From the NCBI GenBank assembly GCA_034189185.1, contig JAXHVM010000014.1, positions 1 through 22,255 on the forward strand: a stretch of DNA of 22,255 bases, in the 5' to 3' direction. The translations under genes were made by a program, and so were the position numbers. This document shows positions 1 to 15,863 of the stretch, in pieces (positions within the stretch are counted from its first letter, which is position 1; each line of letters begins with the position of its first letter). This DNA is from Deferribacterota bacterium (lineage in GTDB: Bacteria; Chrysiogenota; Deferribacteres; Deferribacterales; UBA228). A model generated the notes under the pieces. That model did no database searches. It was not told the DNA's origin and saw nothing but the letters and a program-made list of their open reading frames with translations.

Positions 1-1429
1 GGTAGTTACCCTCTCTTTTAATCATATATCTAAAGGCCTTATCTGTTTGATTGGCATCTGCTGGTATAATTATTCTAACATTATATAGATTTCTAAAGGC
101 ACCTATATAATCTATACATTGATGGGTTTTTCCATCTTCACCTACATCGGCTCCTACATGGGTTGTAACAACCTTTAGATTCGTATTATTTATATCATTT
201 AATCTCATCTGGTTATAGGTCTCATCAATTCCAAATACACCAAAGTCTGCAAATACAGATACTACACCATTTATACTGGTAGCTCCTGCTGTTGTTGAAG
301 TGTGGTGCTCTTGGATACCTGATTCAAAGAATATATCTGTGAATTCTTTTTTGACTTTATCTGTCTTTACAGAGCTAGCTAGGTCACAATCAAATACGAC
401 AATGGGTGTATTTTTCTTATAGTTTAGCTTTACTACATCATACAAAGCATTGCCAAAGGCTGAGCGGTTATCAATCTTTTTGTCTTTATTATAGATAATA
501 GAAGAGCCTACATCTATATTAACTGTAGACCCTTTTATTTTCTCTTTTCTCTTTTTATTTAATTTATTATACTGCTTTTCCTCTCTTAGTCTTTTATACC
601 TTTCATAGTCTATATCTAGATTCAATTCTTTAACTGCTTTAAAATATTCTTCCTCACTTAAGGGCTTACCGTGATAAACCTCTTTGTTCTCCATAAAGGA
701 GACTCCTTTGCCCATAGTTGTGTGCGCTATAATTGCTACTGGTTTATCTACTCTTTTTGACTCTTCTAATGCATTAAATATCTCATTAAGGTTATGCCCA
801 TCAATCTCTATTATATGCCAGCCTGTAGCCATATATTCTGCCTTTATATCTTGGGGCATAATATCCTCTATATTGCCACTAATCTGTAGATGGTTGTAAT
901 CGATAAAGGCTGTTATGTTATTAAAGTTATATTTTTTAATAAATCTTCTTGCCTCAATGATTTGTCCCTTTTGATTCTCTCCATCTCCCATAATGACATA
1001 TATATTAAAGGCTTTATCTAATAATTTCCCTGCTACAGCAAAACCTGCTGAAGCTGATAAGCCTTGTCCCAAGTTACCTGTTGACCACTCAATACCAGGG
1101 ACTACCCTTTCAATATGGCCTTCAAAAATACTACCTGTCTTTCTAAAACCAAGAAATACATCCTCTATATTAAAAAAACCACATCTAGCAAGAACTGAAT
1201 AGACTGCAGGGGATGTATGTCCATTAGATACTATTACCCTATCCCTATCTAAGGAATATAGATTATCTAGTGAGATATTAGCATAGTTGTAAATAGCTAA
1301 AAGCATATCAATGATAGACATTGAACCACCAGGGTGACCACTACCTGCTAGGGTTGTCATTGTTAGGATGTCGCCTCTGCAGAGGGTTTTAAGCTGCTCC
1401 AAATTCTTTACAATATTATTTAACTTCAC
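1..1429 (-). CDS. tkt: Transketolase, with N- and C-terminal sections fused in one ORF. It is truncated at its C-terminus by the window start, which is why the ORF track missed it.
   Basis: I translated the minus strand by hand from a GTG start at 1429..1427, which is preceded by an AAGGAG RBS. The translation is one uninterrupted frame to position 1. It contains the TPP-binding motifs GHPGG and GDGE(N), then the linker to the C-terminal section (..FDCDLASSVKT..HVGADVGEDGKTHQ..). Confidence 0.85.
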   Translation of the reverse strand, partial: MKLNNIVKNLEQLKTLCRGDILTMTTLAGSGHPGGSMSIIDMLLAIYNYANISLDNLYSLDRDRVIVSNGHTSPAVYSVLARCGFFNIEDVFLGFRKTGSIFEGHIERVVPGIEWSTGNLGQGLSASAGFAVAGKLLDKAFNIYVIMGDGENQKGQIIEARRFIKKYNFNNITAFIDYNHLQISGNIEDIMPQDIKAEYMATGWHIIEIDGHNLNEIFNALEESKRVDKPVAIIAHTTMGKGVSFMENKEVYHGKPLSEEEYFKAVKELNLDIDYERYKRLREEKQYNKLNKKRKEKIKGSTVNIDVGSSIIYNKDKKIDNRSAFGNALYDVVKLNYKKNTPIVVFDCDLASSVKTDKVKKEFTDIFFESGIQEHHTSTTAGATSINGVVSVFADFGVFGIDETYNQMRLNDINNTNLKVVTTHVGADVGEDGKTHQCIDYIGAFRNLYNVRIIIPADANQTDKAFRYMIKREGNY

Positions 1430-1507
1430 ATTTACTCCTTTTAGCATATTGACTTTCTAAAGCAATAGTTATAAACCTTTCTAAAGTCAATATTTAATTA
1501 TAAAATA

Positions 1508-1536
1508 TTGACAAAAATAATTATTTTAATAATATA
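1508..1536 (+). promoter_or_regulatory. Candidate sigma70-type promoter for the Mrp-like gene: TTGACA, a ~17-nt spacer, then TAATAT/AATATA.
   Basis: TTGACA sits at 1508..1513. An AT-rich -10 lies about 17 nt downstream. A GGAGG RBS at 1564..1568 lies 9 nt before the ATG at 1578. Confidence 0.3.
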
Positions 1537-1577
1537 AATAACATAAGTTCAAAATTGTTTGTTGGAGGCAAATTAAT

Positions 1578-2585
1578 ATGCAAAAATTATCGTTAGATAA
1601 AGTTTATAACATTTTAGAAAACTTTCCCTTGCTTACAGATTACACATTAAAGAACATTAACGGGCTTAGAAGTGTAGATAATAAAGATGGAAAAATAAAG
1701 GCAGTAATTGATTTACCAATTACTGAAAAAGAAAGCCTAGATTTTTTAAAAAAAGATATAGAATCATATATGAAAAAAAACAATATAGATGTGGATGTTG
1801 AATTAAATAGTAAACAAGCAAAGGAATTAAATAGTATAAAGCACTATATCGCAGTTATGAGTGGCAAAGGTGGTGTCGGCAAATCTTTTGTAAGCGGTTT
1901 ACTTACTGTATATCTTAAGAGAAATGGATATAATGTTGGTTTGTTAGATGCCGATATAACTGGACCAAGCATCCCTAAAATGTTTGGTATAAAAGGTAAC
2001 AAAACAAGGGTACTTGAAAAGGCAATATTGCCGGCATTCAGCAAAAATGATATAAAAATAATGTCTACAAATCTACTTTTACCTGAAGAAGATGATGCCG
2101 TCATTTGGAGGGGGCCTTTGATCTCTAATGTAATTACACAGTTTTTTAATGATGTGCTTTGGGGAAAGCTTGACTACCTCATTATTGATCTACCACCTGG
2201 CACTTCTGATGCGTCATTAACAGTACTTCAAACACCTCCAATCGATGGCGTTGTTATGGTTTTTACACCACAAGATCTAGCTAATATGATTGTAAGAAAA
2301 GCTGTTAATATGGTAGGAAAACTAAATAAATCAATAATAGCATTAGTTGAAAATATGAGTTATTTTGAACAAAAAGGATCCGATGAGAAAATAAATATCT
2401 TTGGTTCTAGCAAAATAGAGAAAATGAAAGAATTAACGGACTGTGAAACAGGTATTAAACTACCTCTAAATCCCAAATTTAGTGAATACGCTGACAGTGG
2501 TAACATTGAAGAATTAGATTATCCTCCCTTTGATGAATTTGCCAAAAAAATCGCTGAATTAGTAAAAAATAAAAAATATAGTTAA
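1578..2585 (+). CDS. Mrp/NBP35/ApbC-family P-loop ATPase with an N-terminal ~90-aa extension. It lacks the C-terminal CxxC pair that normally bridges the Fe-S cluster.
   Basis: It has the deviant Walker A motif SGKGGVGKS, the DADITGPS switch region, and the Mrp-like ENMSYF segment. Where the CPxC Fe-S ligands are expected, the sequence reads EQKG. An RBS is present. Confidence 0.8.
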   Translation: MQKLSLDKVYNILENFPLLTDYTLKNINGLRSVDNKDGKIKAVIDLPITEKESLDFLKKDIESYMKKNNIDVDVELNSKQAKELNSIKHYIAVMSGKGGVGKSFVSGLLTVYLKRNGYNVGLLDADITGPSIPKMFGIKGNKTRVLEKAILPAFSKNDIKIMSTNLLLPEEDDAVIWRGPLISNVITQFFNDVLWGKLDYLIIDLPPGTSDASLTVLQTPPIDGVVMVFTPQDLANMIVRKAVNMVGKLNKSIIALVENMSYFEQKGSDEKINIFGSSKIEKMKELTDCETGIKLPLNPKFSEYADSGNIEELDYPPFDEFAKKIAELVKNKKYS

Positions 2586-2619
2586 TGTTTCTATACACAT
2601 AACTACTATTTATATAATT

Positions 2620-3558
2620 ATGACAAATGTATATGGACCTGTTCCTTCACGTAGATTAGGCAAAAGCCTTGGCATTAATAATATACCCTACAAGATCTGT
2701 ACATACGCTTGTATTTATTGTCAAATTGGAAAAACTATAAAGATGCAAAATAAGAGAGAGGCCTTCTATAAACCAGAAAAACTTGTTAGTGAAGTAAAAA
2801 ATCTTTTATCTAACATTCATAATAAAGATAAGTTCCCTGATTACTTAACAATTGTTCCTGATGGTGAACCTACCTTAGATATCAATATTGGAATATTAAT
2901 TGAAAAGCTTAAAGTGTTTAATATCCCTATTGCTGTTATTACCAATGCATCATTAATTGATCAACCTGATGTTCGTGGTGATTTATCAAAGGCAGATTAT
3001 ATATCTGTAAAAATAGATAGTGTAGATAAAAATAAATGGCGTACAATAAATAGGCCTTATAAGGCATTAAATTTTTATAGCATATTAGAAGGTATTAAAA
3101 CCTTTAGATGTAGTTTTTCTGGACATCTATCTACAGAAACAATGGTAATCAAAGGGATCAACGATAAAGACGAGGACTTTATAGCATTAGCAAAGTATTT
3201 GAATGAATTAAAACCTGATACTGCCTATTTATCTATCCCAATAAGACCGCCAGCAGTAAAAACTGTAGAACCACCAGAACAAAAAGTGTTGTTGCAGGGT
3301 TTTTATACTTTATCTAAAATAATCCCTTCAGCAGCACAACTTACCTACTATGAGGGTGATTCATTCTTTTCGGCAGGCAATAGTGAAAGTGATTTATTAA
3401 GCATAACCGCAGTGCACCCTATGCGAGAAGATGCAGTAGTACAATTGCTAAACAGGAACAATGACAGCTATCAAGTTGTTGAAAAACTAATTAAACAAAA
3501 TATGATAGAAAAAATACATTATAAAAACCATTATTATTACTTAAGAAAATTTAGCTAA
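2620..3558 (+). CDS. Radical SAM protein with a CxxxCxxC motif (COG0731-like Fe-S oxidoreductase).
   Basis: The N-terminal motif GPVPSRRLGKSLGIN is followed by CTYACIYCQ. Downstream motifs are consistent with the partial TIM barrel of radical SAM enzymes. The gene is tightly linked to the genes on either side. Confidence 0.8.
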   Translation: MTNVYGPVPSRRLGKSLGINNIPYKICTYACIYCQIGKTIKMQNKREAFYKPEKLVSEVKNLLSNIHNKDKFPDYLTIVPDGEPTLDINIGILIEKLKVFNIPIAVITNASLIDQPDVRGDLSKADYISVKIDSVDKNKWRTINRPYKALNFYSILEGIKTFRCSFSGHLSTETMVIKGINDKDEDFIALAKYLNELKPDTAYLSIPIRPPAVKTVEPPEQKVLLQGFYTLSKIIPSAAQLTYYEGDSFFSAGNSESDLLSITAVHPMREDAVVQLLNRNNDSYQVVEKLIKQNMIEKIHYKNHYYYLRKFS

Positions 3559-3583
3559 TATAGCACAACAAGGAGGCATAACA

Positions 3584-4174
3584 GTGATAGATTGCTCTAG
3601 TTGTAAAAAACGCTCATGTCGTCAAGGGATGAAATGCGCCAAAGGTTATGATTTTACAAAATATAAAGAATCCTCTGCAAATGAATATAAAAATCAAGAA
3701 AATGAGAAAATTTTAAAAGTAGCTACAAGGATTGAAGCTGAACACTATATGAAATGGACAAGATTAGAAGAAATTATATCCTTTTCTAAGGGTATGGATT
3801 ATAAAAAAATTGGGATAGCAATGTGTGTTGGCTTAATTGAGGAAGCAAATACCCTACAAAAAATATTGTCAAAAAATTTTTCTGTTGTTTCCATCTGCTG
3901 CAAAAGTTGTGGTTTTGAGAAAAAAGCATATGGGCTACCCAATATAAGACCAGATAGTGTAGAAGTTACTTGCAATCCAATTGCACAAGCCCAAATCTTA
4001 AATGATGAAAAAACTAATTTAAATATTATTGTAGGTCTTTGTGTGGGGCATGACATACTATTTACAAAATACTCTAAAGCCCCTGTAACAACCTTTATAG
4101 CAAAGGATAGGGTTCTAGGTCATAATACAGCTGCTAGTTTATACTCAAGCTATTACAAACGAAAACTCTTATGA
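3584..4174 (+). CDS. DUF1847-like cysteine-rich putative metal-binding protein.
   Basis: It has a GTG start with an AGGAGG RBS at 3571..3576. The N-terminus reads CSSCKKRSCRQGMKC, and there are further Cys pairs (SICCKSCG, GLCVGHD). I assigned the family from memory of DUF1847 and ran no search. Confidence 0.55.
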   Translation: MIDCSSCKKRSCRQGMKCAKGYDFTKYKESSANEYKNQENEKILKVATRIEAEHYMKWTRLEEIISFSKGMDYKKIGIAMCVGLIEEANTLQKILSKNFSVVSICCKSCGFEKKAYGLPNIRPDSVEVTCNPIAQAQILNDEKTNLNIIVGLCVGHDILFTKYSKAPVTTFIAKDRVLGHNTAASLYSSYYKRKLL

Positions 4175-4181
4175 TTTTTTT

Positions 4182-5288
4182 TCACACACCATAAGCCTTA
4201 TAACAACTTCTACAAACATTTGGTAGGGGATATTTTTTTAGCATATTTTCATATTTTTTGCCGTATTCACCTAAGGCAGCCATAGTCAACTCCATAGGTA
4301 AAATCCTTTCTGAAGCAATAATACGATTATTAAAAGAATCTCTAAATTCTTTATAAGCCTTGCTTTCCCATATATCAGAAAGCTCATCACTATCAATATT
4401 GCCAAAGGATAGTTTTTTTATCTCCTCATATTTATCACAAAATATCCGTTTAATATTTCCTTTTACTGGCAAATTTAGATAAACACATGGGCTAACATCG
4501 CCATTGACAGTAATAAAGATAGTATCAATGGGGCTTGCTTCACACATAGGTTGCTCACTCATTTTTATAGGGAATATTTTTAACGTTATACCTAGTTTTC
4601 TTGAGACAACCTTTGCTTTGTCTAAATAACCCTGATAACTAGTATTTACTTTACTACAGTCAAATAATTTTAATTCATCTTGAATAGACGTTGGAGTATA
4701 ATCAAGGTTTGTTGCAACTAATTCTTTAATATTAAACTTCTTCATTAAAGTTAATACTTCTGGTAATTCAGAAATATTATCTTTTGTCATCATATAAGAG
4801 AATTTTATTTGGGGATATTTTAAATTATTTTTCTTTTTGGCTGCTATAAGGCAGCTAATGTTATTTAACATATCACTTAATTTTCCTCCTCTAACCAAGG
4901 AATGAGTATGATCACTTGAGCCTCCCAATGAAAAAGCTAATATATCAATATTACTTTTCAAAAGCTCAACTATCATATTGTTATCCAATAACAGACCATT
5001 AGTGGTTAAACTTACAATACTGCCTGCCCTTTTTGCAATATTAACCATTTCAATTATATCTTTATGTAGCAAGGGCTCCCCCCACCCCTGCAGATGCACA
5101 TGCTTTGTCACCGAAAAATAATCTGACAATTTCTTATAAAGAGCAAGTGGCATATCCTCTTCAACCCATTGAACAGCTTGATCACTCCTTGGGCATATCC
5201 TACATTTTAACTGACACCTTGTAGTAGGCTCAACCTGCAAACAAAAAAACTTATATTTTCTTTTCCTCTTTAAATATCTGTTTAACAC
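4182..5288 (-). CDS. Radical SAM enzyme with a C-terminal Cys-rich auxiliary-cluster domain (SPASM/twitch-like).
   Basis: Motifs present: CQLKCRIC (Cx3Cx2C), GWGEPLL (SAM glycine-rich motif), SLTTNG. The C-terminal cysteines are CEASP..SPCVY, FCDKY and CRSCYKAYGV. The gene is convergent with the DUF1847 gene, and their stop codons are only 7 bp apart. Confidence 0.8.
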   Translation of the reverse strand: MLNRYLKRKRKYKFFCLQVEPTTRCQLKCRICPRSDQAVQWVEEDMPLALYKKLSDYFSVTKHVHLQGWGEPLLHKDIIEMVNIAKRAGSIVSLTTNGLLLDNNMIVELLKSNIDILAFSLGGSSDHTHSLVRGGKLSDMLNNISCLIAAKKKNNLKYPQIKFSYMMTKDNISELPEVLTLMKKFNIKELVATNLDYTPTSIQDELKLFDCSKVNTSYQGYLDKAKVVSRKLGITLKIFPIKMSEQPMCEASPIDTIFITVNGDVSPCVYLNLPVKGNIKRIFCDKYEEIKKLSFGNIDSDELSDIWESKAYKEFRDSFNNRIIASERILPMELTMAALGEYGKKYENMLKKYPLPNVCRSCYKAYGV

Positions 5289-5729
5289 CTAATATACCCT
5301 AATAGATCTATTATTCACACAACATATAGTTAGACATAAATTAACTGTTATATATATTTATATATAACATATTTTTAGAAGTTGATCTACAATACTTTTA
5401 GGAAAAGCTGAAGAATCTCCAAGAGACTTCAAATTATAAAACCAGCTTTCAATGAGTATTTTAGTAGACTTGTTGCAGCTGCTAAGGCTATATCCATTGG
5501 CTATAGTGAAATTACTCTTATATCAAAAGCTACAGGTATTTCTCACATAGCTATGATCAAGGCTGCAAAAAAAAATCAATGAATTAAGATGAGGCGACTT
5601 AAAATCTCAAACTATCTGCAGAAAAAATGTGACAGAAAAAAGTCACAGAATAGTTATAACAATATTCGAAGACATATAGGGTCCTCATAAAATACTTTTT
5701 TCAAAGGTTAATAAACAAGGGTTAATTTC

Positions 5730-5758
5730 TTGACACCCACTCAAAAACTAAATACAAT
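5730..5758 (+). promoter_or_regulatory. Candidate promoter TTGACA-17-TACAAT for the C_GCAxxG_C_C gene, preceded by two GGTTAAT direct repeats.
   Basis: TTGACA at 5730..5735, a 17-nt spacer, and TACAAT at 5753..5758. GGTTAAT occurs at 5706..5712 and again at 5720..5726. The implied 5' UTR is about 105 nt. Confidence 0.35.
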
Positions 5759-5869
5759 AATTTTAAATGCTTTAAAAGAGACAGCTTAAATGTTACTAAA
5801 TTATTTGATAGGTATAATTAATATTTGAAACTTTTATCAATTCTTCCTGATTAAAAAGGAACTTAAAAA

Positions 5870-6382
5870 ATGGAAAAAAAAGAGATACTGGAAAAAGCTT
5901 TTGACAATGCAAAGAAACATGAGCTTGAAAGTGGGGGATGTGCACAATGCTGTCTTGCAGGTATTTTTGAAGCCCTTGGGGTTGAGGACGATGGTGTTTT
6001 TATGACGGCCACCGGCTTCGCCGATGGCATCGGTCTTACAGGAAATGGCCACTGCGGAGCGCTTTCAGGGGGCGTCATGGCAATAGGCTACTTCTTTGGA
6101 AGGCCTAAGAAAATGTTTAGTGACATGAAAAAACAGATCAAGGCATGTATACTTTCAAAAAAACTACATGATGCTTTCGTGGAAAAATACGGCACATGCC
6201 GCTGCAAAGACCTACAGGAAAAACTGGTCGGTAGGTTTTTCAATTTATACAACCCTAAAGAGATTGCGGCTGCACTTGAGGCAGGCATGCCTGAAAAATG
6301 CTCTAGCATTGTCGGTGAAACAGCTAGAATGACCGTACACATAATACTAGAAGAGCAGGACCGTGAGGCTAATATAGGCTAA
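5870..6382 (+). CDS. C_GCAxxG_C_C family putative redox protein.
   Basis: The N-terminus contains GGCAQCCLAGIFEALG, followed by GHCGALSGGVMAIGY and later the cysteines CRCKDL and EKCSS. Size is 170 aa. I assigned the family from motif memory. Confidence 0.55.
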   Translation: MEKKEILEKAFDNAKKHELESGGCAQCCLAGIFEALGVEDDGVFMTATGFADGIGLTGNGHCGALSGGVMAIGYFFGRPKKMFSDMKKQIKACILSKKLHDAFVEKYGTCRCKDLQEKLVGRFFNLYNPKEIAAALEAGMPEKCSSIVGETARMTVHIILEEQDREANIG

Positions 6383-6470
6383 TATAAAATGTGTGGCAAT
6401 TAGTAGGTATTATTACTTTTTTCCTCTTTAGTCTAAATTTTAATATTGTGATCAATAGTCTAAAGAATAT

Positions 6471-7529
6471 TTAAAGCTCCAGAAATTCTGGCCGTCTATT
6501 GCATGCCTTTAGGCCTTCCTCTATTAGTTCAAGCACCGCCTGTTTTTCTTCTGGAAATTTGTAGCCCTCATAATCGTGTGAAAAAAGGAGTCCACCCCCA
6601 GGACGTTTCCAGTAGTTTCCAACGTGGTCAAAGCACACCCTACTTGTTACATTTAGGGATTCTATAGTAAGCTTTAGTTCATGTAGTTGTTCACTGGGCG
6701 AGAGCATAACAAAACTGCCAATCTGCCAGGCTTTATACATCAGGCTTCCTGGCAGGGGATAAAAAGGCCGGCAGCGGATGTAGTGGGGATTGATTTCGTT
6801 TAAAACCCTAGCTGTTTCTAAGGCATGGTTAATTGAAAAATCCTTTCCACCTAAACCGGGCATCCAGTATTCCGACACCTCAAATCCTGCCTCAATAGCC
6901 TTTTGACCACCTTTTATGTGTCCTTCAGCAGTTACTCCCTTTTTAACGTATTTCAATAGTTCATCATATCCTGATTCGAGTCCCACATGCAATCTATCCA
7001 GGCCTGCTTGCCTTATTGCCAAAAGTTCAGAGAGCTTTTTATGCTGAAGGGTCCTTGACCTTGCATAGGATGTAACCCTCTGGATGCTTGGGAATCTGCT
7101 GTGCAGGTATTGGAGAACTTCTACAAGATCGGCTATTTTCATTATCAAGCTATCAGCGTCCTGAAGGAAAGCAGTTCTACCTCCTGAAATCAACCAATTA
7201 AAAAGCATTGCAAAGCCATGATGATAACTAAGCTCAGGATGCTTGTTAAGGAATTTAATAGCTGCATCCCTGCTTATACCATCAGCAGACCCACCCTTTT
7301 CGGAGAGTTGTCTAAGCTCATTAGATATCAATGCCATTGCATCAATATCAGCCTTGATTTCGCTGATAGATCTCAACTCAAATTTCTTAGTTTTATACAT
7401 AGCGCAAAAAGCACACCTATTCCATGGGCAGTTGCGTGTTAAGCGAATAAGTAGTGAGTTACTACCCCCTTCGCTTGGAGGCCTATAAATTCCTACTTCA
7501 AACCTATATTGCGCTAAATCCTCCGGCAT
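6471..7529 (-). CDS. Radical-SAM-fold protein with a non-canonical cluster motif, Cx4Cx2C.
   Basis: The N-terminus reads YRPPSEGG..IRLTRNCPWNRCAFCAMYK, and the Cys spacing is 4 and 2 rather than the usual 3 and 2. Downstream are FLQDADSL (GGE-like), VTSYARS and LHVGLESG motifs typical of the radical SAM core. Confidence 0.6.
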   Translation of the reverse strand: MPEDLAQYRFEVGIYRPPSEGGSNSLLIRLTRNCPWNRCAFCAMYKTKKFELRSISEIKADIDAMALISNELRQLSEKGGSADGISRDAAIKFLNKHPELSYHHGFAMLFNWLISGGRTAFLQDADSLIMKIADLVEVLQYLHSRFPSIQRVTSYARSRTLQHKKLSELLAIRQAGLDRLHVGLESGYDELLKYVKKGVTAEGHIKGGQKAIEAGFEVSEYWMPGLGGKDFSINHALETARVLNEINPHYIRCRPFYPLPGSLMYKAWQIGSFVMLSPSEQLHELKLTIESLNVTSRVCFDHVGNYWKRPGGGLLFSHDYEGYKFPEEKQAVLELIEEGLKACNRRPEFLEL

Positions 7530-7648
7530 ACAGCTATTCCTTTCTTCTATTTTAAAATATTAAGAAAAAATTTCCACCCAATCATGAATAACAATTTAAC
7601 ATAGTAGGTTAACAATTTTTATGCACCAAACTGATGCAATTAACTTGC

Positions 7649-7822
7649 TCAAGTAAAACTACTATTTACACAACTACTACCTGTCGATGCGCTAAAAGCA
7701 GACATTAATTTTTTTACATTTTTACTTTTACATTTTGGACACTCAATTAAATCATCTTTTTTCATAACAATTTTACTAAACTTTTCACCACATTCATTAC
7801 ATTTAAATTCATAGATTGGCAT
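7649..7822 (-). CDS. FmdB-family zinc-ribbon protein, 57 aa. It is not in the ORF track because it is below the size cutoff.
   Basis: The minus-strand ATG at 7822..7820 is preceded by GGAGGG. The translation is MPIYEFKCNECGEKFSKIVMKKDDLIECPKCKSKNVKKLMSAFSASTGSSCVNSSFT, with TGA at 7651..7649. It shows the classic MPIYE(F/Y)xCxxCG...CPxC signature. Confidence 0.7.
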   Translation of the reverse strand: MPIYEFKCNECGEKFSKIVMKKDDLIECPKCKSKNVKKLMSAFSASTGSSCVNSSFT

Positions 7823-8130
7823 AAGCCCTCCTTCTCTCTTTAAGATTCTATATGAAAACTAAAATCTATTAAAAAAATTATATATTTATTGACAGAAAGC
7901 AATAAAATTATTAACATATGTTTATATGAAAATTATTTTCATTATTATATTTTTATTTTTAATCCTTTTATTAACAAGAATTTTTACACACATACTATTA
8001 AATTTAAACAGGTATGTTCAAAGATATAGTAATTTAACCAATAGTTTATTCTTTAACCTAGATTTTTCATTATTAAAAACATCTAATATTATAAGCTTTT
8101 TTTACCAAAAAAATACCGTTGGGGGTTTCT

Positions 8131-8967
8131 ATGGAGTTAAAGATAACTATATTATGTGAAAATAGCGTTATACTTCCCTTTGGATTAATTGGTGAGCACG
8201 GTTTTGCTGCTTATGTAGAATATGGTGATAGGGTATTTCTCTTTGATACAGCCCAAGGCAAAGGCTTACTAAATAATAGTAGGTTATTAAAAAAAGACCT
8301 TAAAAATATTGAATTTTTATATTTATCCCATGGCCACTACGACCATACACTTGGCATCCCCGATCTACTTAGTATAAAATCGCCACTTACTATATATGCC
8401 CATCCAGATATATTTAAAGATAGGGTTTGGATAATTAACAATAAGAAAAAATTTATAGGTATGCCCTTTAAAAAGGACTATTTAGAGGGCTTAGGTGCAG
8501 AATTTTCACTGTCAAAAAAATTTACTCAAATAGATGAGGGTATCTACTCATCAGGTGAAATAGTAAGGAAAACATCCTTTGAAAAAATTGATGCAGGTAT
8601 GAAAATAATTGATGATAATAACAATCTAGTAGATGATAACATACTTGATGACTACTCCCTTGCAATTAATACGAGCAAAGGACTTGTAATTATTTTAGGA
8701 TGTGCTCACTCTGGCATAATAAATATTATTAACCATTTTGTAGAAAAGACCGGCACAAATGACATATATGCTGTTTTAGGTGGAACCCATTTAGGTTTTG
8801 CAAGTGATCTGCAAATAGAAGAAACTATCAAAACTATTGAAAAATACAATATTAAAAAACTTGGTGCATCCCACTGCACAGGACTTGAGGTAGCAGCTAA
8901 ATTATATAATAAATTAAAGGATAGATTTTTCTTTGCCTCTGTAGGAGGGACTTTAGAAGTAAATTGA
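8131..8967 (+). CDS. MBL-fold metallo-hydrolase.
   Basis: It has the HxHxDH motif (LSHGHYDHT), with a later His (GCAHSG) and Asp. The ATG at 8131 is preferred, with a GGGGG RBS at 8121..8125. The track's alternative start is a TTG at 8119. Confidence 0.8.
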   Translation: MELKITILCENSVILPFGLIGEHGFAAYVEYGDRVFLFDTAQGKGLLNNSRLLKKDLKNIEFLYLSHGHYDHTLGIPDLLSIKSPLTIYAHPDIFKDRVWIINNKKKFIGMPFKKDYLEGLGAEFSLSKKFTQIDEGIYSSGEIVRKTSFEKIDAGMKIIDDNNNLVDDNILDDYSLAINTSKGLVIILGCAHSGIINIINHFVEKTGTNDIYAVLGGTHLGFASDLQIEETIKTIEKYNIKKLGASHCTGLEVAAKLYNKLKDRFFFASVGGTLEVN

Positions 8968-9590
8968 GGGCTTACAGAAGAAAATTCTACAATCTTTTTT
9001 CAATAATCTATGATAGTTTTGTTGCACTACATTCAAAAGACAAGGGTCAAGAAGCTAGAAAAGCATTAGCAGATTTGATAGATCCCAAAAAAGATAAAAT
9101 AATAGTAGATATATGCACAGGAACAGGCACACTTCTTCTCTATTTAGCTGATAAGTCAAGAGAAAGTAGGGTAATTGGAATTGATTTTTCAAGGGGAATG
9201 CTAAAAAAAGCAAAAGAAAAAACTAAAAACAAAAATAATATTTATCTCATTGAAGCAGATGTTGCAAATATGCCACTTAAAAATGAGATATGTGACAAAA
9301 TTATATGCTCCCATGCTTTTTATGAATTAAAAGGTATGGACCAAATAAAACTACTAAAAGAAGTGCAGCGAGTAATGAACCCTGAAGGCAATTTTTTAAT
9401 TATGGAACATGAAGTGCCAAAAAACCCATTTATAAAATTCCTCTTTTACATTAGAATATTCTCTATGGGGACAAACACTGCATTCACAATATTAAAAAGA
9501 GAAAAATCCCTTCTAAAAAAATATTTTAGTGATGTATCAAAAAAGCACAGCTATTCATCTAAATCTAAAATATATATCTGTAAAAAATAG
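8964..9590 (+). CDS. Class I SAM-dependent methyltransferase.
   Basis: It has the VDICTGTG motif I and an acidic residue after the second beta strand (GIDFS). Its start overlaps the MBL gene's stop by 4 nt, which suggests translational coupling. The TTG start is uncertain. Confidence 0.7.
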   Translation: MRAYRRKFYNLFSIIYDSFVALHSKDKGQEARKALADLIDPKKDKIIVDICTGTGTLLLYLADKSRESRVIGIDFSRGMLKKAKEKTKNKNNIYLIEADVANMPLKNEICDKIICSHAFYELKGMDQIKLLKEVQRVMNPEGNFLIMEHEVPKNPFIKFLFYIRIFSMGTNTAFTILKREKSLLKKYFSDVSKKHSYSSKSKIYICKK

Positions 9591-9612: not shown

Positions 9613-10407
9613 CTATTTTAGCTCCAAACACACAGCTGCATTCTCAAACACTTGAAATGTTAAGGTCTCAAGGAAATATAAGCTTATATGTTTATCATTA
9701 TGACTATCATAACCAATTGATAAATCCTGCCCAAAATTTAAGATAAAATCACCACCCCTCTCTGATAAGAAAAAAACATCCTTTATATGAGGGGATACTA
9801 CAATCTTACCATCAATAGTATTCTTAACAGATTTGAGAAGTGGATAACCTTTACCATGGCTAACTATAAATTTCCATACCTCTGGTGATACTACTAATGA
9901 ATAGGGACCACCAATCCCTAGATAAACCAACTTTCCTTTTGCATCTACAATTGATTTTAATAAACTTTCTGCATCTAACGATAATGTAATAGTATCACTA
10001 ACATTCTTCTTTAAACCATCGACGTTTGCTTTCTTCATCCCGTAATATACTATCTCATCTTCTAGTTTAGATATCACACGAGCTGCCTCAATAAGTGGTG
10101 CCAAATCAGGATTTTTACACCCTCTATCTATACTATCTATCTCTTGCCTATCTAATTTGAAATATGTTTTTAGCTCTATTAATGGCTGAACATCAAAAAT
10201 TGAACATACTGTATTTTCATTGCTTTTTTCATCTAACTTTTTTAGTCTCCCCGTATTTATGACCCCAAAATCTAAACCCTTAGGCTCTTTAACATCAACT
10301 AATCTCCTTGCTGTTAGATAATTTGAAAAAGCATCCTTTGCTTGACTGAATAATTCCTTCCATGCTTTATCGCTAATTGGTGCTAATTCTTGTCTTAATA
10401 TGTTCAT
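9613..10407 (-). CDS. Family 1 encapsulin nanocompartment shell protein (HK97 fold).
   Basis: The 264-aa protein aligns by eye along its full length to T. maritima-type encapsulin (..PLIELKTYF.LD..E..ERGGDF.L..GQDLSIGY..ETLTFQV..). It has a GAGAGGT RBS. Confidence 0.9.
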   Translation of the reverse strand: MNILRQELAPISDKAWKELFSQAKDAFSNYLTARRLVDVKEPKGLDFGVINTGRLKKLDEKSNENTVCSIFDVQPLIELKTYFKLDRQEIDSIDRGCKNPDLAPLIEAARVISKLEDEIVYYGMKKANVDGLKKNVSDTITLSLDAESLLKSIVDAKGKLVYLGIGGPYSLVVSPEVWKFIVSHGKGYPLLKSVKNTIDGKIVVSPHIKDVFFLSERGGDFILNFGQDLSIGYDSHNDKHISLYFLETLTFQVFENAAVCLELK

Positions 10408-10429
10408 TTATTACCTCTCTCTCTTATTT

Positions 10430-10783
10430 TTATTTTAATTTTCCAATATTTAGACTACTATTTGGTTTATAGCTACTTTCTTCACTTGATGCCTCATTTC
10501 CTTCTATTGAGACTATATCTTCCTTTGTAAATAGATAAGTTTTCAAAGCTTCATCCCAAAAGCCCATATTTCTTCTAAGCCATTCAATTGCCATTACTGC
10601 ATGTTCAATCTCCTCATCCCTGTGATGTTCTAACATCCTTCTTAAACCTTCATCTTTGCAGACATCAACCCTTTGTTGGTACCAATTTACCGCTTCGACC
10701 TCTTCCTTTAGCGTATTTAATGCCCTAACAATATTTCTTGTTTCTTCGGATAACTCTTCAGTTGGTTCATGATAATCTGACAT
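10430..10783 (-). CDS. Encapsulated ferritin-like cargo protein (EncFtn) with a C-terminal encapsulin targeting peptide.
   Basis: It has the ferritin-like ExxH motifs (RRMLEHHRDEEIEHAVMAIEWLRR) and a flexible acidic/Ser-rich tail ending in SLNIGKLK, which matches the encapsulin cargo-loading peptide consensus. It lies 22 bp upstream of the shell gene on the same strand. Confidence 0.85.
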   Translation of the reverse strand: MSDYHEPTEELSEETRNIVRALNTLKEEVEAVNWYQQRVDVCKDEGLRRMLEHHRDEEIEHAVMAIEWLRRNMGFWDEALKTYLFTKEDIVSIEGNEASSEESSYKPNSSLNIGKLK

Positions 10784-10853
10784 ATATTCACCTCAATATA
10801 TTTATTTTTGTTATAATTATATATTAAAATATAAATTCTACAATAGTAAAATA

Positions 10854-10876
10854 GAAAGGCCTTTCAAAGGCCTTTC
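10854..10876 (-). terminator. Stem-loop (GAAAGGCC ... GGCCTTTC) downstream of the peroxiredoxin copy A stop. It may be a bidirectional terminator.
   Basis: An 8-11 bp perfect inverted repeat spans 10854..10876, with an A/T run on either side. It lies between the prx-A stop at 10908 and the EncFtn promoter region. Confidence 0.5.
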
Positions 10877-10907
10877 TATAATTATTTTATAAATTGTTAA
10901 AATAACG

Positions 10908-11630
10908 CTAATAAAGTGTTGAATAAGTAGGATTCCACACCTTCCATACATTACCTTCTAAATCTTCACTTGGGGTTAGGGTTATTTTGCCTGGCAACCA
11001 ACCAGCAGGCAATACCTCTCCTGTCTCTTTATTGTATTGTAATGCTTTAACCTGTCTAATTGTCTCATCTATATTTCTACCAACAGGTGGTGTTAAAACC
11101 TCCATAGCCCTTACTATACCATCGGGATCTATTATAAACCTACCTCTAATATCAACCTTACCTTCTTCATCATAAACATTATACAATCTCCCAATGCTAC
11201 CACCTGGATCAGAAAGCATAGGAAATTTTACTCCCCCTTCAATCATTTTCTTTAATTCTTTTTCTTGCCATTCTTGATGAGATTCAACAGAATTTACACT
11301 AACACTTAAAACCTCTACATTTAAAGATTTCAAAATATTGTATTTGGCAGCAACTGCTGTCAATTCGGTTGGTCAAACAAATGTAAAATCACCTGGATAG
11401 AAACACAATAGCACCCATTTGCCCTTATAATCAGAAAGGGAAACCCTTTTAAATTCACCATCGTGAAAGGCATCTGCAGTAAAATCTGGAGCAGGCTTAT
11501 CAACTTTAACAATATTCACATTATCTGAGCCAACACCGCTATTTTGCGCAAAAAGCTTGCCATCTACAACAAAAAGTCCCACTAATAAAATAGCTAAAAA
11601 TAGGCAATATTTACCTAATAGCCTACACAT
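10908..11630 (-). CDS. Peroxiredoxin copy A (AhpC/TSA family) with an N-terminal signal or anchor segment and an in-frame TGA at the peroxidatic Cys position. It is a candidate selenocysteine peroxiredoxin. The alternative is a nonsense-disrupted pseudogene.
   Basis: Track ORFs 11373..11630 and 10908..11363 are one frame separated only by TGA at 11375..11373. The translation reads ..[14 protein letters not shown]-[TGA][11 protein letters not shown]... The paralogue reads ..FYPRDFGIVCPTELTALAAKY... The frame is intact through to the shared C-terminus NPTYSTLY. It has its own AGGAGGTGA RBS and promoter. Confidence 0.55.
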
Positions 11631-11656
11631 ATATCACCTCCTATGCTTTTATTAAA

Positions 11657-11684
11657 ATTCTAACATAGATAAAATAATTGTCAA
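11657..11684 (-). promoter_or_regulatory. Candidate promoter for prx copy A (TTGACA-16-TAGAAT on the minus strand).
   Basis: The minus-strand TTGACA lies at 11684..11679 and TAGAAT at 11662..11657, about 20 nt upstream of the RBS and ATG at 11630. Confidence 0.4.
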
Positions 11685-11837
11685 CATAAGTTAATAATTA
11701 TTTTAAAAATAATTATAAACAAAAACTAAATAAAGATAATCTTCTTCAATATAGAATAGATAACCAACTGTACGTGCATAACACTTGATATTTATGAACT
11801 TATGATATAATATACAACCTGTTTTATTGGAAAGCTT

Positions 11838-12028: not shown

Positions 12029-12778
12029 TTAGTAAAGCGTTGAATAAGTTGGATTCCATTCCTTCCATACATTACCTTCTAATTCATCACTTGGGGTTAG
12101 GGTTGTTTTACCAGGTACCCAACCATCTGGCAGAACTTCTCCTGTCTCCTCATTATGTTGTAAAGCTTTTATCCGTCTAATAGTCTCATTTATATATCTA
12201 CCGGCTTGCGGTGTTAAAACATCCATTGCTCTTACTATACCATCGGGGTCTATTATAAAACTAGCTTTCAAATCAACTTTGCCTATAGATTTGCCCATAA
12301 CAACCAAACCTTCTTCATCATAAACATTATACAATCTCCCAATGCTACCATCGGGATCAGAAAGCATAGGAAATTTTACTCCCCCTTCAATCATTTTCTT
12401 TAATTCTTTTTCTTGCCATTCTTGATGGGATTCAACAGAATTTACACTAACACTTAAAACCTCTACATTTAAAGATTTCAAAATATTGTATTTGGCAGCA
12501 AGTGCTGTCAATTCTGTTGGGCAGACTATCCCAAAATCACGTGGATAGAAATGTAAAAGTACCCATTTGCCCCTATAATCAGATAATGAGACCTTTTTAA
12601 ATTCACCATCGTGAAAGGCATCTGCAGTAAAATCAGGAGCAGGCTTATCAACTTTAACAATATTCACATTATCTGAGCCAACACCGCTATTTTGCGCAAA
12701 AAGCTTGCCATCTACAACAAAAAGTCCCACTAATAAAATAGCTAAAAATAGGCAATATGTGCCTATACATTTGTTCAT
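12029..12778 (-). CDS. Peroxiredoxin copy B (AhpC/TSA family), Cys-containing, with an N-terminal hydrophobic signal or anchor. It has no C-terminal resolving Cys.
   Basis: It has FYPRDFGIVCPTEL with the peroxidatic Cys present. Where typical 2-Cys Prx has the resolving EVCP Cys, the C-terminus reads EVLPDGW. Relative to copy A it carries a 27-nt in-frame insertion (LVVMGKSIG). It has an AGGAGGTGA RBS. Confidence 0.85.
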   Translation of the reverse strand: MNKCIGTYCLFLAILLVGLFVVDGKLFAQNSGVGSDNVNIVKVDKPAPDFTADAFHDGEFKKVSLSDYRGKWVLLHFYPRDFGIVCPTELTALAAKYNILKSLNVEVLSVSVNSVESHQEWQEKELKKMIEGGVKFPMLSDPDGSIGRLYNVYDEEGLVVMGKSIGKVDLKASFIIDPDGIVRAMDVLTPQAGRYINETIRRIKALQHNEETGEVLPDGWVPGKTTLTPSDELEGNVWKEWNPTYSTLY

Positions 12779-12980: not shown

Positions 12981-13709
12981 ATGAAATTTAATGTAAATGC
13001 AATTGTAAAAAGCAGGGATGTCCAATCAAATGGCTATATTAGATTTCCCCATTTAGTTAGAATATTTCAGAATTCAGCATTTAAACACTCGGATTATCTT
13101 GGCTTAACACAAGATATACTTCTGAAAAATAGACTAGCATGGGTTTTATATTCAATGTATGTTAAAGTATATAATTATCCTAAATTAAATGACAATTTAT
13201 CAATAACAACATGGGTGGATAGCAAGCAAAAAATATTAATAAAGCGAGATTATCAAGTGACAAATAATAATACACCTATTTTAGATGCAACCTCCTCTTG
13301 GGTATTGTTTAATTTAGATAAAAGGCAAGCTATGTTTATCCCTGACAATATTTACTATATCTATGAACCTGAATATGAAAATATCTTATCCAAAGAAGAA
13401 AATAAATTGCCTTTTTATAATAATATTAATTATAATTACTATTATGAATTTACAATACGTCACATGGATTTAGATTCTAATGATCATGTAAATAATATTA
13501 CATATATAGATTTTATCTATACAGCAGTTTATAGAATGCTAAAAAAACCTGTATATATAAAAACGTTAAATATTATATATAAAAAAGAGATAACTTTAGA
13601 TGTCGAGAAAGTAAACATTCAATTAAATAACGATTCAGAGCAATTTAATTTTAAAATTGTTAATGACAACAACCTCTATTCCTATGGATTTTTACAACTA
13701 TATAAATAG
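12981..13709 (+). CDS. Acyl-ACP thioesterase-like protein with a double hotdog fold.
   Basis: The 242-aa protein has a C-terminal hotdog region with LDSNDHVNNITYIDFI (D..HVNN..Y) and an N-terminal ..NGYIRF..L..FQ..A..H region that resembles FatA/B-type thioesterases. Family assignment is from memory. Confidence 0.55.
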   Translation: MKFNVNAIVKSRDVQSNGYIRFPHLVRIFQNSAFKHSDYLGLTQDILLKNRLAWVLYSMYVKVYNYPKLNDNLSITTWVDSKQKILIKRDYQVTNNNTPILDATSSWVLFNLDKRQAMFIPDNIYYIYEPEYENILSKEENKLPFYNNINYNYYYEFTIRHMDLDSNDHVNNITYIDFIYTAVYRMLKKPVYIKTLNIIYKKEITLDVEKVNIQLNNDSEQFNFKIVNDNNLYSYGFLQLYK

Positions 13710-14832
13710 AATAAAGTTGTTTATAATAAAAAACTTTAAGTGCATAATAATATTTTCTTGTGCTTTTCTTTATCTGATTTGGCTTCCACCTTTTACAAAT
13801 AACCTAAAAGCAGCGTATATAAAAGATCTAATGAATAGAAGAATAGAATTGCCAGAAAAAATAGAAAACATCATAGCAATAGGGCCAGGCACCTTAAGAT
13901 TATTAGCTTATATGGATACTTTTACATTTATAAGAGGGGTTGAGGCAATAGAAAAGGACAAATCAATGATATATAAGAGGCCCTATGCGCTTGCAAATTT
14001 TAACTATATAAAAAAGCTGCCCATAATAGGTAATGGTGGCCCTGGTATATTACCTAATTTTGAGAAGATTATTTCACTAAAATGTGATATAATCTTTGCT
14101 ACATCCTATTCCCTCAATCAAATAGAGCTCATACAGAAAAAAACAAATATCCCAGTAGTTAGTCTTAGTTATGGTAATACTAATGATATAATAAATAATG
14201 AAATAGAAAAATCTCTTAAATTAATTGGGCTGATTTTAAATAAAGAAAATAGGGCTAAACATATAATAGATTATATTAATAAAACTATTAGAGAACTTAA
14301 AAGTAGAACATTAAATAATAAATCTAGAAATATTAAAGCTTATATTGGAGGTCTTGGTTTTAAGGGCAGCCATGGTTTTACCGGCTCAACCTCATCCTTT
14401 CCACCCTTTGAAATATTAAACATTACAAATATATTATCTACTAATAATATATTTAAAGGATCTAATTTTCTAATATTAGATAAAGAAGCCATCCTCTTAC
14501 TTAATCCAGATTATATATATTTTGATTCAAATGGGATAGATATTATAAAAGATAATCTAAAAAAAGATCCCACTTATTTTAAGTTGCTCAAAGCTGTAAA
14601 AAACAAAAATGTATATATGTTACTTCCTTATAACAATTATAATACAAATATAGAAAATGCACTTATAAATACCTATTATATTGGAATAACAGCCTATCCA
14701 GAATTATTCAAAGATATTAATATAGAAAAAAAAGCAGATAAAATATATAAATTCTTTCTAAGTAAACAATTGTATAATAAAATAAAAAACTATAACCTAA
14801 CACTAAAACAATTTTCAGCAATAAATAAATAA
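13684..14832 (+). CDS. ABC transporter periplasmic substrate-binding protein (iron-chelate / B12 / heme type, TroA/FecB-like). It is probably a lipoprotein or anchored by its signal peptide.
   Basis: An N-terminal hydrophobic segment (IIIFSCAFLYLIW) is followed by a class III PBP-like sequence (IIAIGPGTLRLLAYM..). Its genomic context is the FecCD permease and ATPase genes. The start is ambiguous: ATG at 13684, which overlaps the upstream gene, or TTG at 13717. Confidence 0.65.
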   Translation: MDFYNYINRIKLFIIKNFKCIIIFSCAFLYLIWLPPFTNNLKAAYIKDLMNRRIELPEKIENIIAIGPGTLRLLAYMDTFTFIRGVEAIEKDKSMIYKRPYALANFNYIKKLPIIGNGGPGILPNFEKIISLKCDIIFATSYSLNQIELIQKKTNIPVVSLSYGNTNDIINNEIEKSLKLIGLILNKENRAKHIIDYINKTIRELKSRTLNNKSRNIKAYIGGLGFKGSHGFTGSTSSFPPFEILNITNILSTNNIFKGSNFLILDKEAILLLNPDYIYFDSNGIDIIKDNLKKDPTYFKLLKAVKNKNVYMLLPYNNYNTNIENALINTYYIGITAYPELFKDINIEKKADKIYKFFLSKQLYNKIKNYNLTLKQFSAINK

Positions 14833-14837
14833 AATAA

Positions 14838-15863
14838 GTGGCAAAAAATTATAAACAATTTCTTAAGAAAAAACTATATTTAGGACTCCTTTTAACTATC
14901 TTACTATTTATTTCTATAGTTATATCATTAAATACTGGAAGCATAGAAATAGATTTAAAACAATTCACAAATCTGATATTTCATTTTAGAGAAGATCAAG
15001 TTTTCACACATATACTAATTAATATTAGATTACCAAGGATTTTTAATGCAATCCTTGCAGGCGCTTCTCTGTCAATCTCTGGAGCTATATTACAAAATCT
15101 ATTAAAAAATCCACTGGCTTCCCCTTTTACTCTTGGCATATCACATGGTGCTGTTTTCGGTGCAGCTCTTGCTATTACACTAAAATCCTATATTCCATTT
15201 GGAAATAGTTCATGTGCAATCATTATATTTGCCTTTGTCTTTGCAATAATAACGATGTTAATAATTTTGCTAATTACAGCCATAAAAGGTTTATATGCAT
15301 ATGTTGTAATACTTGCAGGTGTGGCATTAAATTCACTTTTTGCATCTCTAACAATGTTATTACAATATTTTAGCACAGATGAGGAAATAGCAGCTATTGT
15401 CTTTTGGACATTTGGTGATTTAAATAAAACCCTATGGAGTGATATCTATTTAATGTCACTAATTATTATTCCTATTATAGTATATCAAATATTCATAAGC
15501 CCTAAATATAACATTACTATTTGGGATGATGATACAGCAATGAGTTTAGGGATAAACATCAAGCTATTTAAAACTGTAGGGGTTATTTCATCCTGCCTTA
15601 TAACAGCTGCAGTTATATCATTTATGGGGATAATAGGTTTTATTGGCCTAATATCCCCTCATATAATTAGATTGGTTATAGGTAATGATCATAGATTTTT
15701 ACTTATTTATTCTGCTATATTGGGAAGTATAATACTTTTACTATCAGATATGATCGGCAGGGTTGTTTTAGCCCCAGCAATAATCCCTGTAGGCATTATA
15801 ACATCCCTTTTAGGTGTGCCTATATTTTTATATATATTACTTAGAAATAAAGGAATTTCGTAG
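14838..15863 (+). CDS. FecCD-family iron-chelate / B12 ABC transporter permease.
   Basis: The 341-aa protein is predicted to have about 9-10 TM helices. It has conserved FecCD motifs (..RLPRI..A.L.GA.L..SGA.LQ...NPLASP..LG.S.GA..). Confidence 0.85.
   Translation: MAKNYKQFLKKKLYLGLLLTILLFISIVISLNTGSIEIDLKQFTNLIFHFREDQVFTHILINIRLPRIFNAILAGASLSISGAILQNLLKNPLASPFTLGISHGAVFGAALAITLKSYIPFGNSSCAIIIFAFVFAIITMLIILLITAIKGLYAYVVILAGVALNSLFASLTMLLQYFSTDEEIAAIVFWTFGDLNKTLWSDIYLMSLIIIPIIVYQIFISPKYNITIWDDDTAMSLGINIKLFKTVGVISSCLITAAVISFMGIIGFIGLISPHIIRLVIGNDHRFLLIYSAILGSIILLLSDMIGRVVLAPAIIPVGIITSLLGVPIFLYILLRNKGIS

Follow-up and report, generated by a model that had tools for sequence, protein, structure and literature searches.

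Mrp proteins are recognized by two features, a deviant Walker A motif and a CXXC motif; one of them, MrpORP (Orp9), is a component of the orange protein (ORP) complex of Desulfovibrio, along with Orp3, Orp4, Orp5, and Orp8 (PMC6345978). A stretch of 22,255 bp from an anaerobic Deferribacterota metagenome-assembled genome, here called the window, encodes an Mrp-like ATPase without CXXC, a minimal radical S-adenosylmethionine (SAM) enzyme, a protein of the DUF1847 family, and, converging on these, a second radical SAM enzyme with a degenerate SPASM domain. We put the probability at about 0.5 that this locus is a reduced, rearranged Deferribacterota version of an anaerobe-wide, ORP-associated neighbourhood that handles a metal-sulfur centre, a function read from motifs, context, and domain fusions. 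The four genes are:

1578..2585, plus strand: Mrp/NBP35-like SIMIBI ATPase, 335 aa (ParA/NUBPL PF10609, 281 bits)
2620..3558, plus strand: minimal radical SAM enzyme, 312 aa (Radical_SAM PF04055, 58 bits)
3584..4174, plus strand: DUF1847 protein, 196 aa (PF08901, 197 bits vs cut-off 25)
4182..5288, minus strand: radical SAM enzyme with degenerate SPASM domain, 368 aa, gene intact here (Radical_SAM 57 plus SPASM 50 bits)

Each open reading frame (ORF) has a strong Pfam match, with a score far above threshold. The intergenic gaps are 34 bp (2586-2619) and 25 bp (3559-3583), and the convergent stop codons lie 7 bp apart (4175-4181). The ORF listing and the Pfam matches thus agree with a preliminary description of this DNA, which had given the same genes and spacing. 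That description treated the four genes as a dedicated unit, and missed the ORP-type operon context.

DUF1847 and its neighbours across phyla

DUF1847 is a family of anaerobes, both bacterial and archaeal. More than 4,100 clusters were found at 90% identity, and an exhaustive profile search gave 1,565 representatives at 50%. Neighbourhoods were surveyed in 80 species-level genome loci, the best-scoring of at least 590 matches rather than a random sample, with the window proteins as queries and with de novo clustering of neighbouring ORFs supported by Pfam.

The fullest arrangement is found in Methanocellales, Methanosarcinales, and Hadesarchaea: a co-directional operon, its genes often overlapping, in the order DUF134; Mrp; Nitro_FeMo-Co; two MinD-type ATPases with a ferredoxin insert (MinD-Fer4); DUF1847; a metallo-β-lactamase (MBL)-fold protein; and a radical SAM enzyme of the 312/308 type, sometimes followed by TrmO (Pfam-confirmed for locus L061). 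In its first five genes the operon matches the ORP set: Orp5, Orp9/MrpORP, Orp8, Orp3, and Orp4. Parts of the arrangement are found in Aquificales, Syntrophomonas, Bacteroidales, and KSB1. Because families of the Deferribacterota locus lie inside ORP-type operons elsewhere, the locus most likely helps to build or deliver a metal-sulfur centre, rather than to produce a modified peptide.

Numbers of loci, of the 80, with each family within 5 kb of DUF1847 (lower bounds, since many contigs are cut off):

MinD-Fer4: 32
MBL family: 19
Mrp: 18
NifX-like: 12
ARMT1-like (DUF89): 12
DUF134: 8
FmdB zinc ribbon: 8
Radical SAM family of the 312-aa enzyme: 7
Methyltransferase: 7
TrmO_N: 5

Neighbours were detected by single-sequence phmmer on stop-to-stop ORFs, so divergent short families, especially NifX-like (scores 22-30), are under-counted. 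The SPASM family lies near DUF1847 in Deferribacterota relatives only.

The association falls steeply with distance. For three zones (up to 5 kb from DUF1847, 5-10 kb away, and the 399 kb of unrelated control loci), densities in matches per 100 kb are 8.6, 1.5, and 0 for MinD-Fer4; 2.9, 0, and 0 for MBL; 2.7, 1.5, and 0 for Mrp; and 1.0, 0.24, and 0 for the 312-aa radical SAM family.

Domain fusions give independent evidence in line with the neighbourhood data. Among the best 150 DUF1847 representatives, 21 are long (313-349 aa) and carry DUF1847 at the C-terminal end; in 16 of these 21, the N-terminal part is Nitro_FeMo-Co, the NifX/Orp8 'Di-Nase' domain that is also fused to the ATPase in MrpORP. 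The NifX-like fusion is thus present in at least 16 protein clusters that are independent of one another. One DUF1847 representative is a fusion with TrmO_N.

CGGC-domain genes adjoin or lie near DUF1847 in some bacteria (L043, 1849-2487; L047, 5597-6211; L052, 14842-15294). Homology between DUF1847 and the CGGC domain that replaces it in some clusters was considered and rejected (hhalign probability 0.9%).

The four proteins

The ATPase has an intact deviant Walker A motif, GKGGVGKS (residues 96-103, nt 1863-1886; matching GKGGhGK[ST]). The CXXC position reads EQKGSDEK (ENMSYFEQKGSDEK, nt 2349-2396), with QKGS aligned to CPNC of 2PH1 and 3KB1, and the single cysteine in the entire protein is C289. 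The loss of CXXC noted in the preliminary description is therefore real. It is common to all Deferribacterota orthologues, and six Bacteroidales Mrp genes near DUF1847 also lack the motif; other DUF1847-adjacent Mrps keep CPxC. The variant is thus recurrent rather than unique. Judged by the published features (PMC6345978), the sequence is that of an Mrp-like ATPase that would be unable to bridge [4Fe-4S] in the usual way.

The P-loop domain matches solved Mrp/NBP35/ApbC structures with expect values (E) of 6e-64 to 1e-45. The best curated model is MrpORP, NF041136 (287 bits, cut-off 450), of which profile positions 1-247 of 365 are matched, and a Pfam search of the ATPase gave no PF02579 (Nitro_FeMo-Co) match. 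Since the MrpORP match is limited to the P-loop part, the Di-Nase domain is missing. The ApbC equivalog cut-off of 348 is not reached either (193 bits). The N-terminal 85 residues, described earlier as an extension, have a counterpart in the N-terminal region of the ApbC model NF008669 (residues 7-323 align to profile positions 15-340); they have no Pfam match and are missing from the 266-aa orthologue of the next relatives.

The 312-aa radical SAM enzyme carries its CX3CX2C motif at C27/C31/C34 (nt 2698-2721), preceded by GPVPSRRLG, which is invariant at the N-terminus (nt 2635-2661). The three cluster cysteines are the sole invariant cysteines in the family, with no further conserved cysteine. 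The family is very large (at least 7,998 clusters at the 90% level), and members from different phyla are up to 57% identical. No curated cut-off is reached (viperin NF038283, 41 bits; TYW1, 34 bits), and a PDB sequence search with the protein found no relative. The AlphaFold model (predicted local distance difference test, pLDDT, 87), which is based solely on close homologues, shows a partial triosephosphate isomerase barrel followed by a C-terminal winged-helix-like domain of three helices and two strands, about nt 3370-3558. With such a model Foldseek nominally placed NifB at the top, but NifB, pyruvate formate-lyase (PFL)-activase, and TYW1 matched about equally (E ~1e-10, template-modelling score 0.54-0.60), viperin ranked at about the same level, and the search does not discriminate between them.

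Three assignments were set aside: TYW1, corresponding to the source annotation 'wyosine synthetase' (33.7 bits vs the TIGR03972 cut-off of 318); an anti-phage, viperin-like system, pVip (41 and 48 bits vs the NF038283 cut-off of 180; PADLOC pVip 38-54 bits, over the radical SAM core only); and PF24049 (YOMG_N), found in one homologue as a marginal, uninformative match inside the radical SAM core.

The DUF1847 gene is preceded by the ribosome-binding site AAGGAGG. Its product begins with CX2CX4CX5C (nt 3593-3637), and further invariant or near-invariant residues are C81, C105, C106, C130, C153, H156, and H180, for a conserved total of nine cysteines and two histidines. The predicted model has a confident flavodoxin-like α/β core (pLDDT 88), in which the latter five cysteines and two histidines are placed at or just past the C-terminal ends of the parallel strands. 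A literature search found DUF1847 and COG0731 unmentioned, and nothing relevant for COG1237, 7DCK, or DUF134.

In the minus-strand enzyme, CX3CX2C corresponds to C25/C29/C32 (nt 5193-5216). The SPASM-like tail reported earlier is confirmed by PF13186 (49.7 bits vs cut-off 21.5, residues 252-318). A full seven-cysteine SPASM motif reads CX9-15GX4C ... CX2CX5CX3C ... C. Here C249-x13-G263-x4-C268 is present; the CX2CX5CX3C block is reduced to the single C284; and C359xxC362, in the C-terminal end CxxCYKAYG, brings the conserved cysteines to five. The closest curated models are TIGR04317 (186 bits, cut-off 380) and TIGR04311 (155 bits, cut-off 400). Because its proteins fall under every curated cut-off for families with known substrates, the cluster was rightly called uncharacterised.

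A second survey was anchored on the SPASM enzyme and used three look-ups and 80 metagenome loci; the SPASM-anchored loci scanned number 83 (L092-L174). SPASM homologues of ~40% identity or more, on long contigs from other phyla, recur in a block: MinD-Fer4; TrmO; MinD-Fer4; radical SAM; ferredoxin; MBL; SPASM; methyltransferase. Often nearby are genes for DUF2099 (methanogenesis marker 8-like), a 410-aa unknown protein, DUF134, NifX-like, and CGGC proteins. The radical SAM enzyme of the block is a sister subtype of the 312-aa enzyme (34% identity, E 7e-59, same N-terminal motif), and its MBL protein is 28% identical to that of the window (E 1e-27). More distant SPASM homologues, without the block context, served as controls. 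Since radical SAM, MBL, and methyltransferase families of the same kinds stand beside SPASM homologues elsewhere, the SPASM gene is, in other phyla, part of one functional circle with them, even if in Deferribacterota it is decaying.

The conserved gene set in Deferribacterota

In the closest relatives (L001-L004; DUF1847 89% identical), window positions 1424-5320 are collinear at 87% nucleotide identity, and the next collinear block starts at 7611. Because collinearity breaks at 5320 and resumes at 7611, the intervening 2.29 kb is an insertion. The ancestral layout spans ~5.7 kb: Mrp, radical SAM, and DUF1847 on the plus strand; SPASM and a zinc ribbon on the minus strand; then MBL and methyltransferase on the plus strand. 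All of these except the SPASM gene are kept in Deferribacterota at 74-89% identity. The conserved set therefore extends beyond the four genes first delimited, to zinc-ribbon, MBL, and methyltransferase genes at 7649-9590. The features concerned are:

1508..1535, plus strand: promoter-like site TTGACA-16-TAATAT, sigma-70-like, 10/12 consensus match, ahead of the Mrp-like gene
5321..7610, no strand: insertion in the ancestral locus, outside the conserved set (GC ~43% vs ~31% elsewhere; absent from L001)
5442-5579, within the insertion: weak ISAzo13-like transposase remnant
5870-6382, plus strand, within the insertion: C_GCAxxG_C_C family gene
6471-7529, minus strand, within the insertion: unclassified radical SAM gene, 352 aa
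7649..7822, minus strand: FmdB-family zinc-ribbon protein, 57 aa, with conserved C-terminal tail ...S-x-C-x-x-SFT
8119..8967, plus strand: MBL-fold protein, 282 aa, of the family that flanks DUF1847 in 19 of the 80 species loci
8964..9590, plus strand: class I SAM methyltransferase, 208 aa, overlapping the MBL gene by 4 bp

The C_GCAxxG_C_C gene and the 352-aa radical SAM gene probably arrived together by horizontal transfer. Neither the 352-aa protein nor the window DUF1847 protein was on record when looked up by exact sequence.

The SPASM gene behaves differently from its neighbours. In L001-L004 (about 10603-11709) and in L095, five independent assemblies, an in-frame TGA stands in place of a glycine codon of the window; the gene of the closest relatives is a fixed pseudogene or a split gene. 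A selenocysteine reading was rejected: the TGA replaces glycine, not cysteine, in a variable column. The gene is absent from relatives at 74% identity, namely the L005 group and, at 75%, Deferribacterales UBA4806. Interrupted or absent in relatives, the SPASM enzyme is thus dispensable in this lineage. With a TGA in relatives of 85-89% identity and no gene at 74%, the four genes do not form a dedicated conserved unit. The preliminary description would have doubted a dedicated system if its enzymes fell into characterised families and the linkage were not conserved: the four-gene linkage indeed fails, but no characterised family is reached, and pairwise linkage of the families recurs in other genomes.

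Between the four genes no ORF of 20 aa or more was found, and the sole short ORFs in 5289-5869 sit in DNA missing from the closest relative. The earlier statement that no precursor is visible thus stands for 1430-5870, but the 57-aa zinc-ribbon gene lies just outside that range, and in the ancestral layout this gene, with its cysteine- and serine-containing tail, is 86 bp upstream of the SPASM gene.

Promoter-like sites are no commoner in the region than in shuffled sequence, and the one at 1508-1535 is a consensus match only. The converging stop codons are not separated by a terminator-like site, and the whole window gave zero matches in Rfam and tRNA scans. The upstream minus-strand neighbour of the Mrp-like gene encodes transketolase.

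Several observations touch the downstream genes. Residues 227-266 of the MBL-fold protein, a C-terminal β-α element (KKLGASHCTGLEVA), resemble the DUF1847 profile at a level below threshold (E 0.006, 16.6 bits), which may reflect a shared cysteine-bearing motif or chance. FmdB-type zinc ribbons with cysteine-rich tails lie a few kilobases from DUF1847 or from close SPASM homologues in L052, L070, L103, L104, L107, L108, and L115, and in L051, L065, L079, and L086; the tails include ...CGKEQTCCGKxTPCxxRPCDK and ...SCxTGTCPTGTCGL. No FmdB-type zinc ribbon was found in the 399 kb of control loci.

Beyond the methyltransferase, 9613-10783 (minus strand) encodes an encapsulin shell protein (Linocin_M18) and an adjacent EncFtn-like ferritin cargo protein, with Pfam names taken via the L001 orthologues. 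These genes adjoin peroxiredoxins, and the region looks like an iron and oxidative-stress island. The peroxiredoxin gene at 10908-11630 (minus strand) contains an in-frame TGA (11371-11373) exactly at the peroxidatic cysteine position (FTFV-U-PTEL), so its product is a likely selenoprotein; a tandem paralogue at 12029-12778 (minus strand) carries cysteine (GIV-C-PTEL). Relatives show the same split peroxiredoxin gene call, without the cysteine paralogue. Positions 13657-16615 (plus strand) encode a BtuF/FecB-type periplasmic binding protein, a FecCD permease, and an ABC ATPase (an iron-chelate or corrinoid importer); in relatives this region adds a TonB-dependent receptor and a Fur gene.

Readings of the locus and known systems

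In the best-supported picture, the window holds an 'accessory arm' made up of the SIMIBI ATPase, radical SAM enzyme, DUF1847, MBL-fold protein, methyltransferase, zinc ribbon, and, optionally, SPASM enzyme. From the observed gene content, motifs, conserved neighbourhoods, and fusions we infer metal binding, a division of steps, and a kind of substrate. DUF1847 would bind a metal-sulfur centre, or two, through the N-terminal CX2CX4CX5C and, as another site, the five invariant cysteines and two histidines at the strand ends of the flavodoxin-like core. It could serve as scaffold, carrier, or client. By analogy with other SIMIBI ATPases that serve as metallochaperones, the Mrp-like ATPase, with its nucleotide switch kept and presumably no [4Fe-4S] bridging of its own, may be a partner for docking or transfer that is gated by ATP. 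A radical step on the bound centre, its ligand, or the client protein might be the task of the one-cluster radical SAM enzyme. Additional steps would come from the MBL-fold protein and the methyltransferase, and from the SPASM enzyme in genomes that have one.

Several points weigh against the metal-sulfur reading. The window contains no MinD-Fer4, NifX-like, or DUF134 gene, and no ORP core gene, which leaves other genomes as the basis of the ORP link. Missing from the ATPase are the sole ligands by which members of the Mrp family are known to hold a cluster. In 39 of the 80 DUF1847 loci, many of them on short contigs, no partner family lies within 5 kb. The ORP complex itself has no established physiological role (PMC6345978, PMC3897727). 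Finally, the radical SAM enzyme may have a more general role, because a Bacteroidota homologue neighbours unrelated genes: in Tangfeifania (L088, 5913-7945), a 57%-identical enzyme is encoded 14 bp after a 357-aa DeoC/LacD-family aldolase gene and upstream of a KaiC-like ATPase; a methyltransferase and CobO lie close by.

A bolder form of the same reading would make the ORP genes, DUF1847, MBL, and radical SAM, with optional SPASM and methyltransferase, a single ancient archaeal and bacterial pathway that assembles an undescribed metal-sulfur cofactor with nitrogenase-like logic, the CXXC-less Deferribacterota Mrp using DUF1847 in trans as its cluster holder. We regard this as speculative, and rather unlikely as a whole.

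The strongest alternative, itself doubtful, is protein or peptide modification in the manner of ribosomally synthesized and post-translationally modified peptides (RiPPs), in which one or both radical SAM enzymes would modify the 57-aa FmdB zinc ribbon or DUF1847, with the winged-helix-like domain of the 312-aa enzyme for recognition. A protein-acting enzyme, PFL-activase, is among its top structural matches. In the closest relatives the zinc-ribbon and SPASM genes are co-directional, and the zinc-ribbon tail is kept between 54%-identical orthologues; moreover, cysteine-tailed FmdB proteins lie near DUF1847 (8 of 80 loci) and near close SPASM homologues, with none in the control loci. Yet the zinc-ribbon gene is kept where the SPASM gene is pseudogenised or lost, and among the 83 SPASM-anchored loci only three have a zinc ribbon within 6 kb, adjacent only in the near-identical L095. 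FmdB proteins are common in genomes, Pfam finds no RiPP recognition element (RRE)/PqqD-type domain, and the best SPASM models are putative metalloenzyme maturases, not peptide maturases. Metallocofactor maturation, which the preliminary description had offered as its other option, fits this evidence better.

Less likely again is a route to an organic small molecule or cofactor, in which a metabolite would be built or tailored by the two radical SAM enzymes, an MBL hydrolase or transferase, and the methyltransferase, while DUF1847 and the ATPase would provide accessory redox or metal-delivery functions. The tight co-directional run of radical SAM, MBL, SPASM, and methyltransferase genes in unrelated phyla would fit such a route, as would the overlap of the MBL and methyltransferase genes in the window, the recurrence nearby of methyltransferases and of the corrinoid adenosyltransferase CobO, and the cross-phyla identity of the radical SAM enzyme, which suggests a universal small substrate. 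Against this, no further biosynthetic genes (ligases, transporters, carrier proteins) accompany the set, the strongest partners are Fe-S ATPases, and the fusion partners of DUF1847 are NifX-like cluster-carrier domains instead of enzymes from organic metabolism.

It is improbable that there is no dedicated system at all, merely housekeeping genes of anaerobes, unrelated to one another (a Fe-S carrier and a radical SAM enzyme of general use, a metal-binding protein) and juxtaposed in this lineage: the unconserved four-gene unit, the different radical SAM neighbours in Bacteroidota, and the DUF1847 loci without nearby partners would suit that idea, but against it speak the pairwise linkages, which recur in archaea and in bacteria, fall off steeply with distance, and have zero control matches; the independent domain fusions; and the translationally coupled or overlapping genes in many loci.

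Three large 'unknown' families (DUF1847, the radical SAM family, and the MBL-fold family) gain a testable context as recurrent partners of ORP-type genes, in a field, Fe-S and metallocofactor maturation in strict anaerobes, that is poorly mapped. A true ORP link would name proteins for co-expression and spectroscopy, and could explain some CXXC-less Mrp ATPases. The window copy is reduced and partly decayed, and so is useful as a pointer rather than as a model locus.

Among described systems, nitrogenase cofactor assembly (NifB, NifX/NafY, a NifH-type ATPase, NifEN) offers a parallel in its combination of a radical SAM enzyme, NifX-like carriers, SIMIBI ATPases, and a cysteine-rich scaffold. 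It differs in that no nitrogenase genes are present here, the radical SAM enzyme lacks extra auxiliary-cluster cysteines, and its match to NifB is no better than to PFL-activase or TYW1. TIGR04317, 'tungsten cofactor oxidoreductase radical SAM maturase', aligns over nearly its full length with the SPASM enzyme (residues 17-325 to profile 6-308). The names of TIGR04317 and TIGR04311 ('putative metalloenzyme maturase') are context-based, however, the scores are far below 380 and 400, and the window has no gene of the aldehyde:ferredoxin oxidoreductase (AOR) family.

Another PDB relative of the ATPase in the Mrp/MinD family is 3VX3 (E 1e-28), far more distant than true Mrp structures. It is the Mrp/MinD-type HypB of Thermococcus kodakarensis, a nickel-insertion ATPase that works with the zinc-ribbon protein HypA. 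The zinc-ribbon protein of the locus has faint similarity to HypA (21 bits, below cut-off), and the window contains no hydrogenase genes. The Mrp/NBP35/ApbC carriers (2PH1, 3KB1/6OBY, Cfd1 6G2G) are closer. The P-loop domain and deviant Walker A motif are shared with the window ATPase, whereas the cluster-bridging CXXC is QKGS in the window protein, which has one cysteine and stays below the ApbC cut-off.

The closest comparison is with the ORP complex of Desulfovibrio vulgaris. The window lacks counterparts of its MinD-ferredoxin ATPases (Orp3/Orp4), of Orp5 (DUF134), and of the NifX-like Orp8, and in place of MrpORP (Orp9) has an ATPase without the Di-Nase domain and without the CXXC that carries the MrpORP cluster. 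Both are anaerobe-specific and include an Mrp-type ATPase; in many genomes the ORP gene set is co-operonic with DUF1847, MBL, and radical SAM genes of the window families; and DUF1847 is fused to the Nitro_FeMo-Co domain of Orp8 and MrpORP. On the best reading, therefore, the locus belongs to a known kind, the ORP/Mrp-type metallocluster systems, and adds to it an uncharacterised extension with DUF1847, MBL, and radical SAM proteins.

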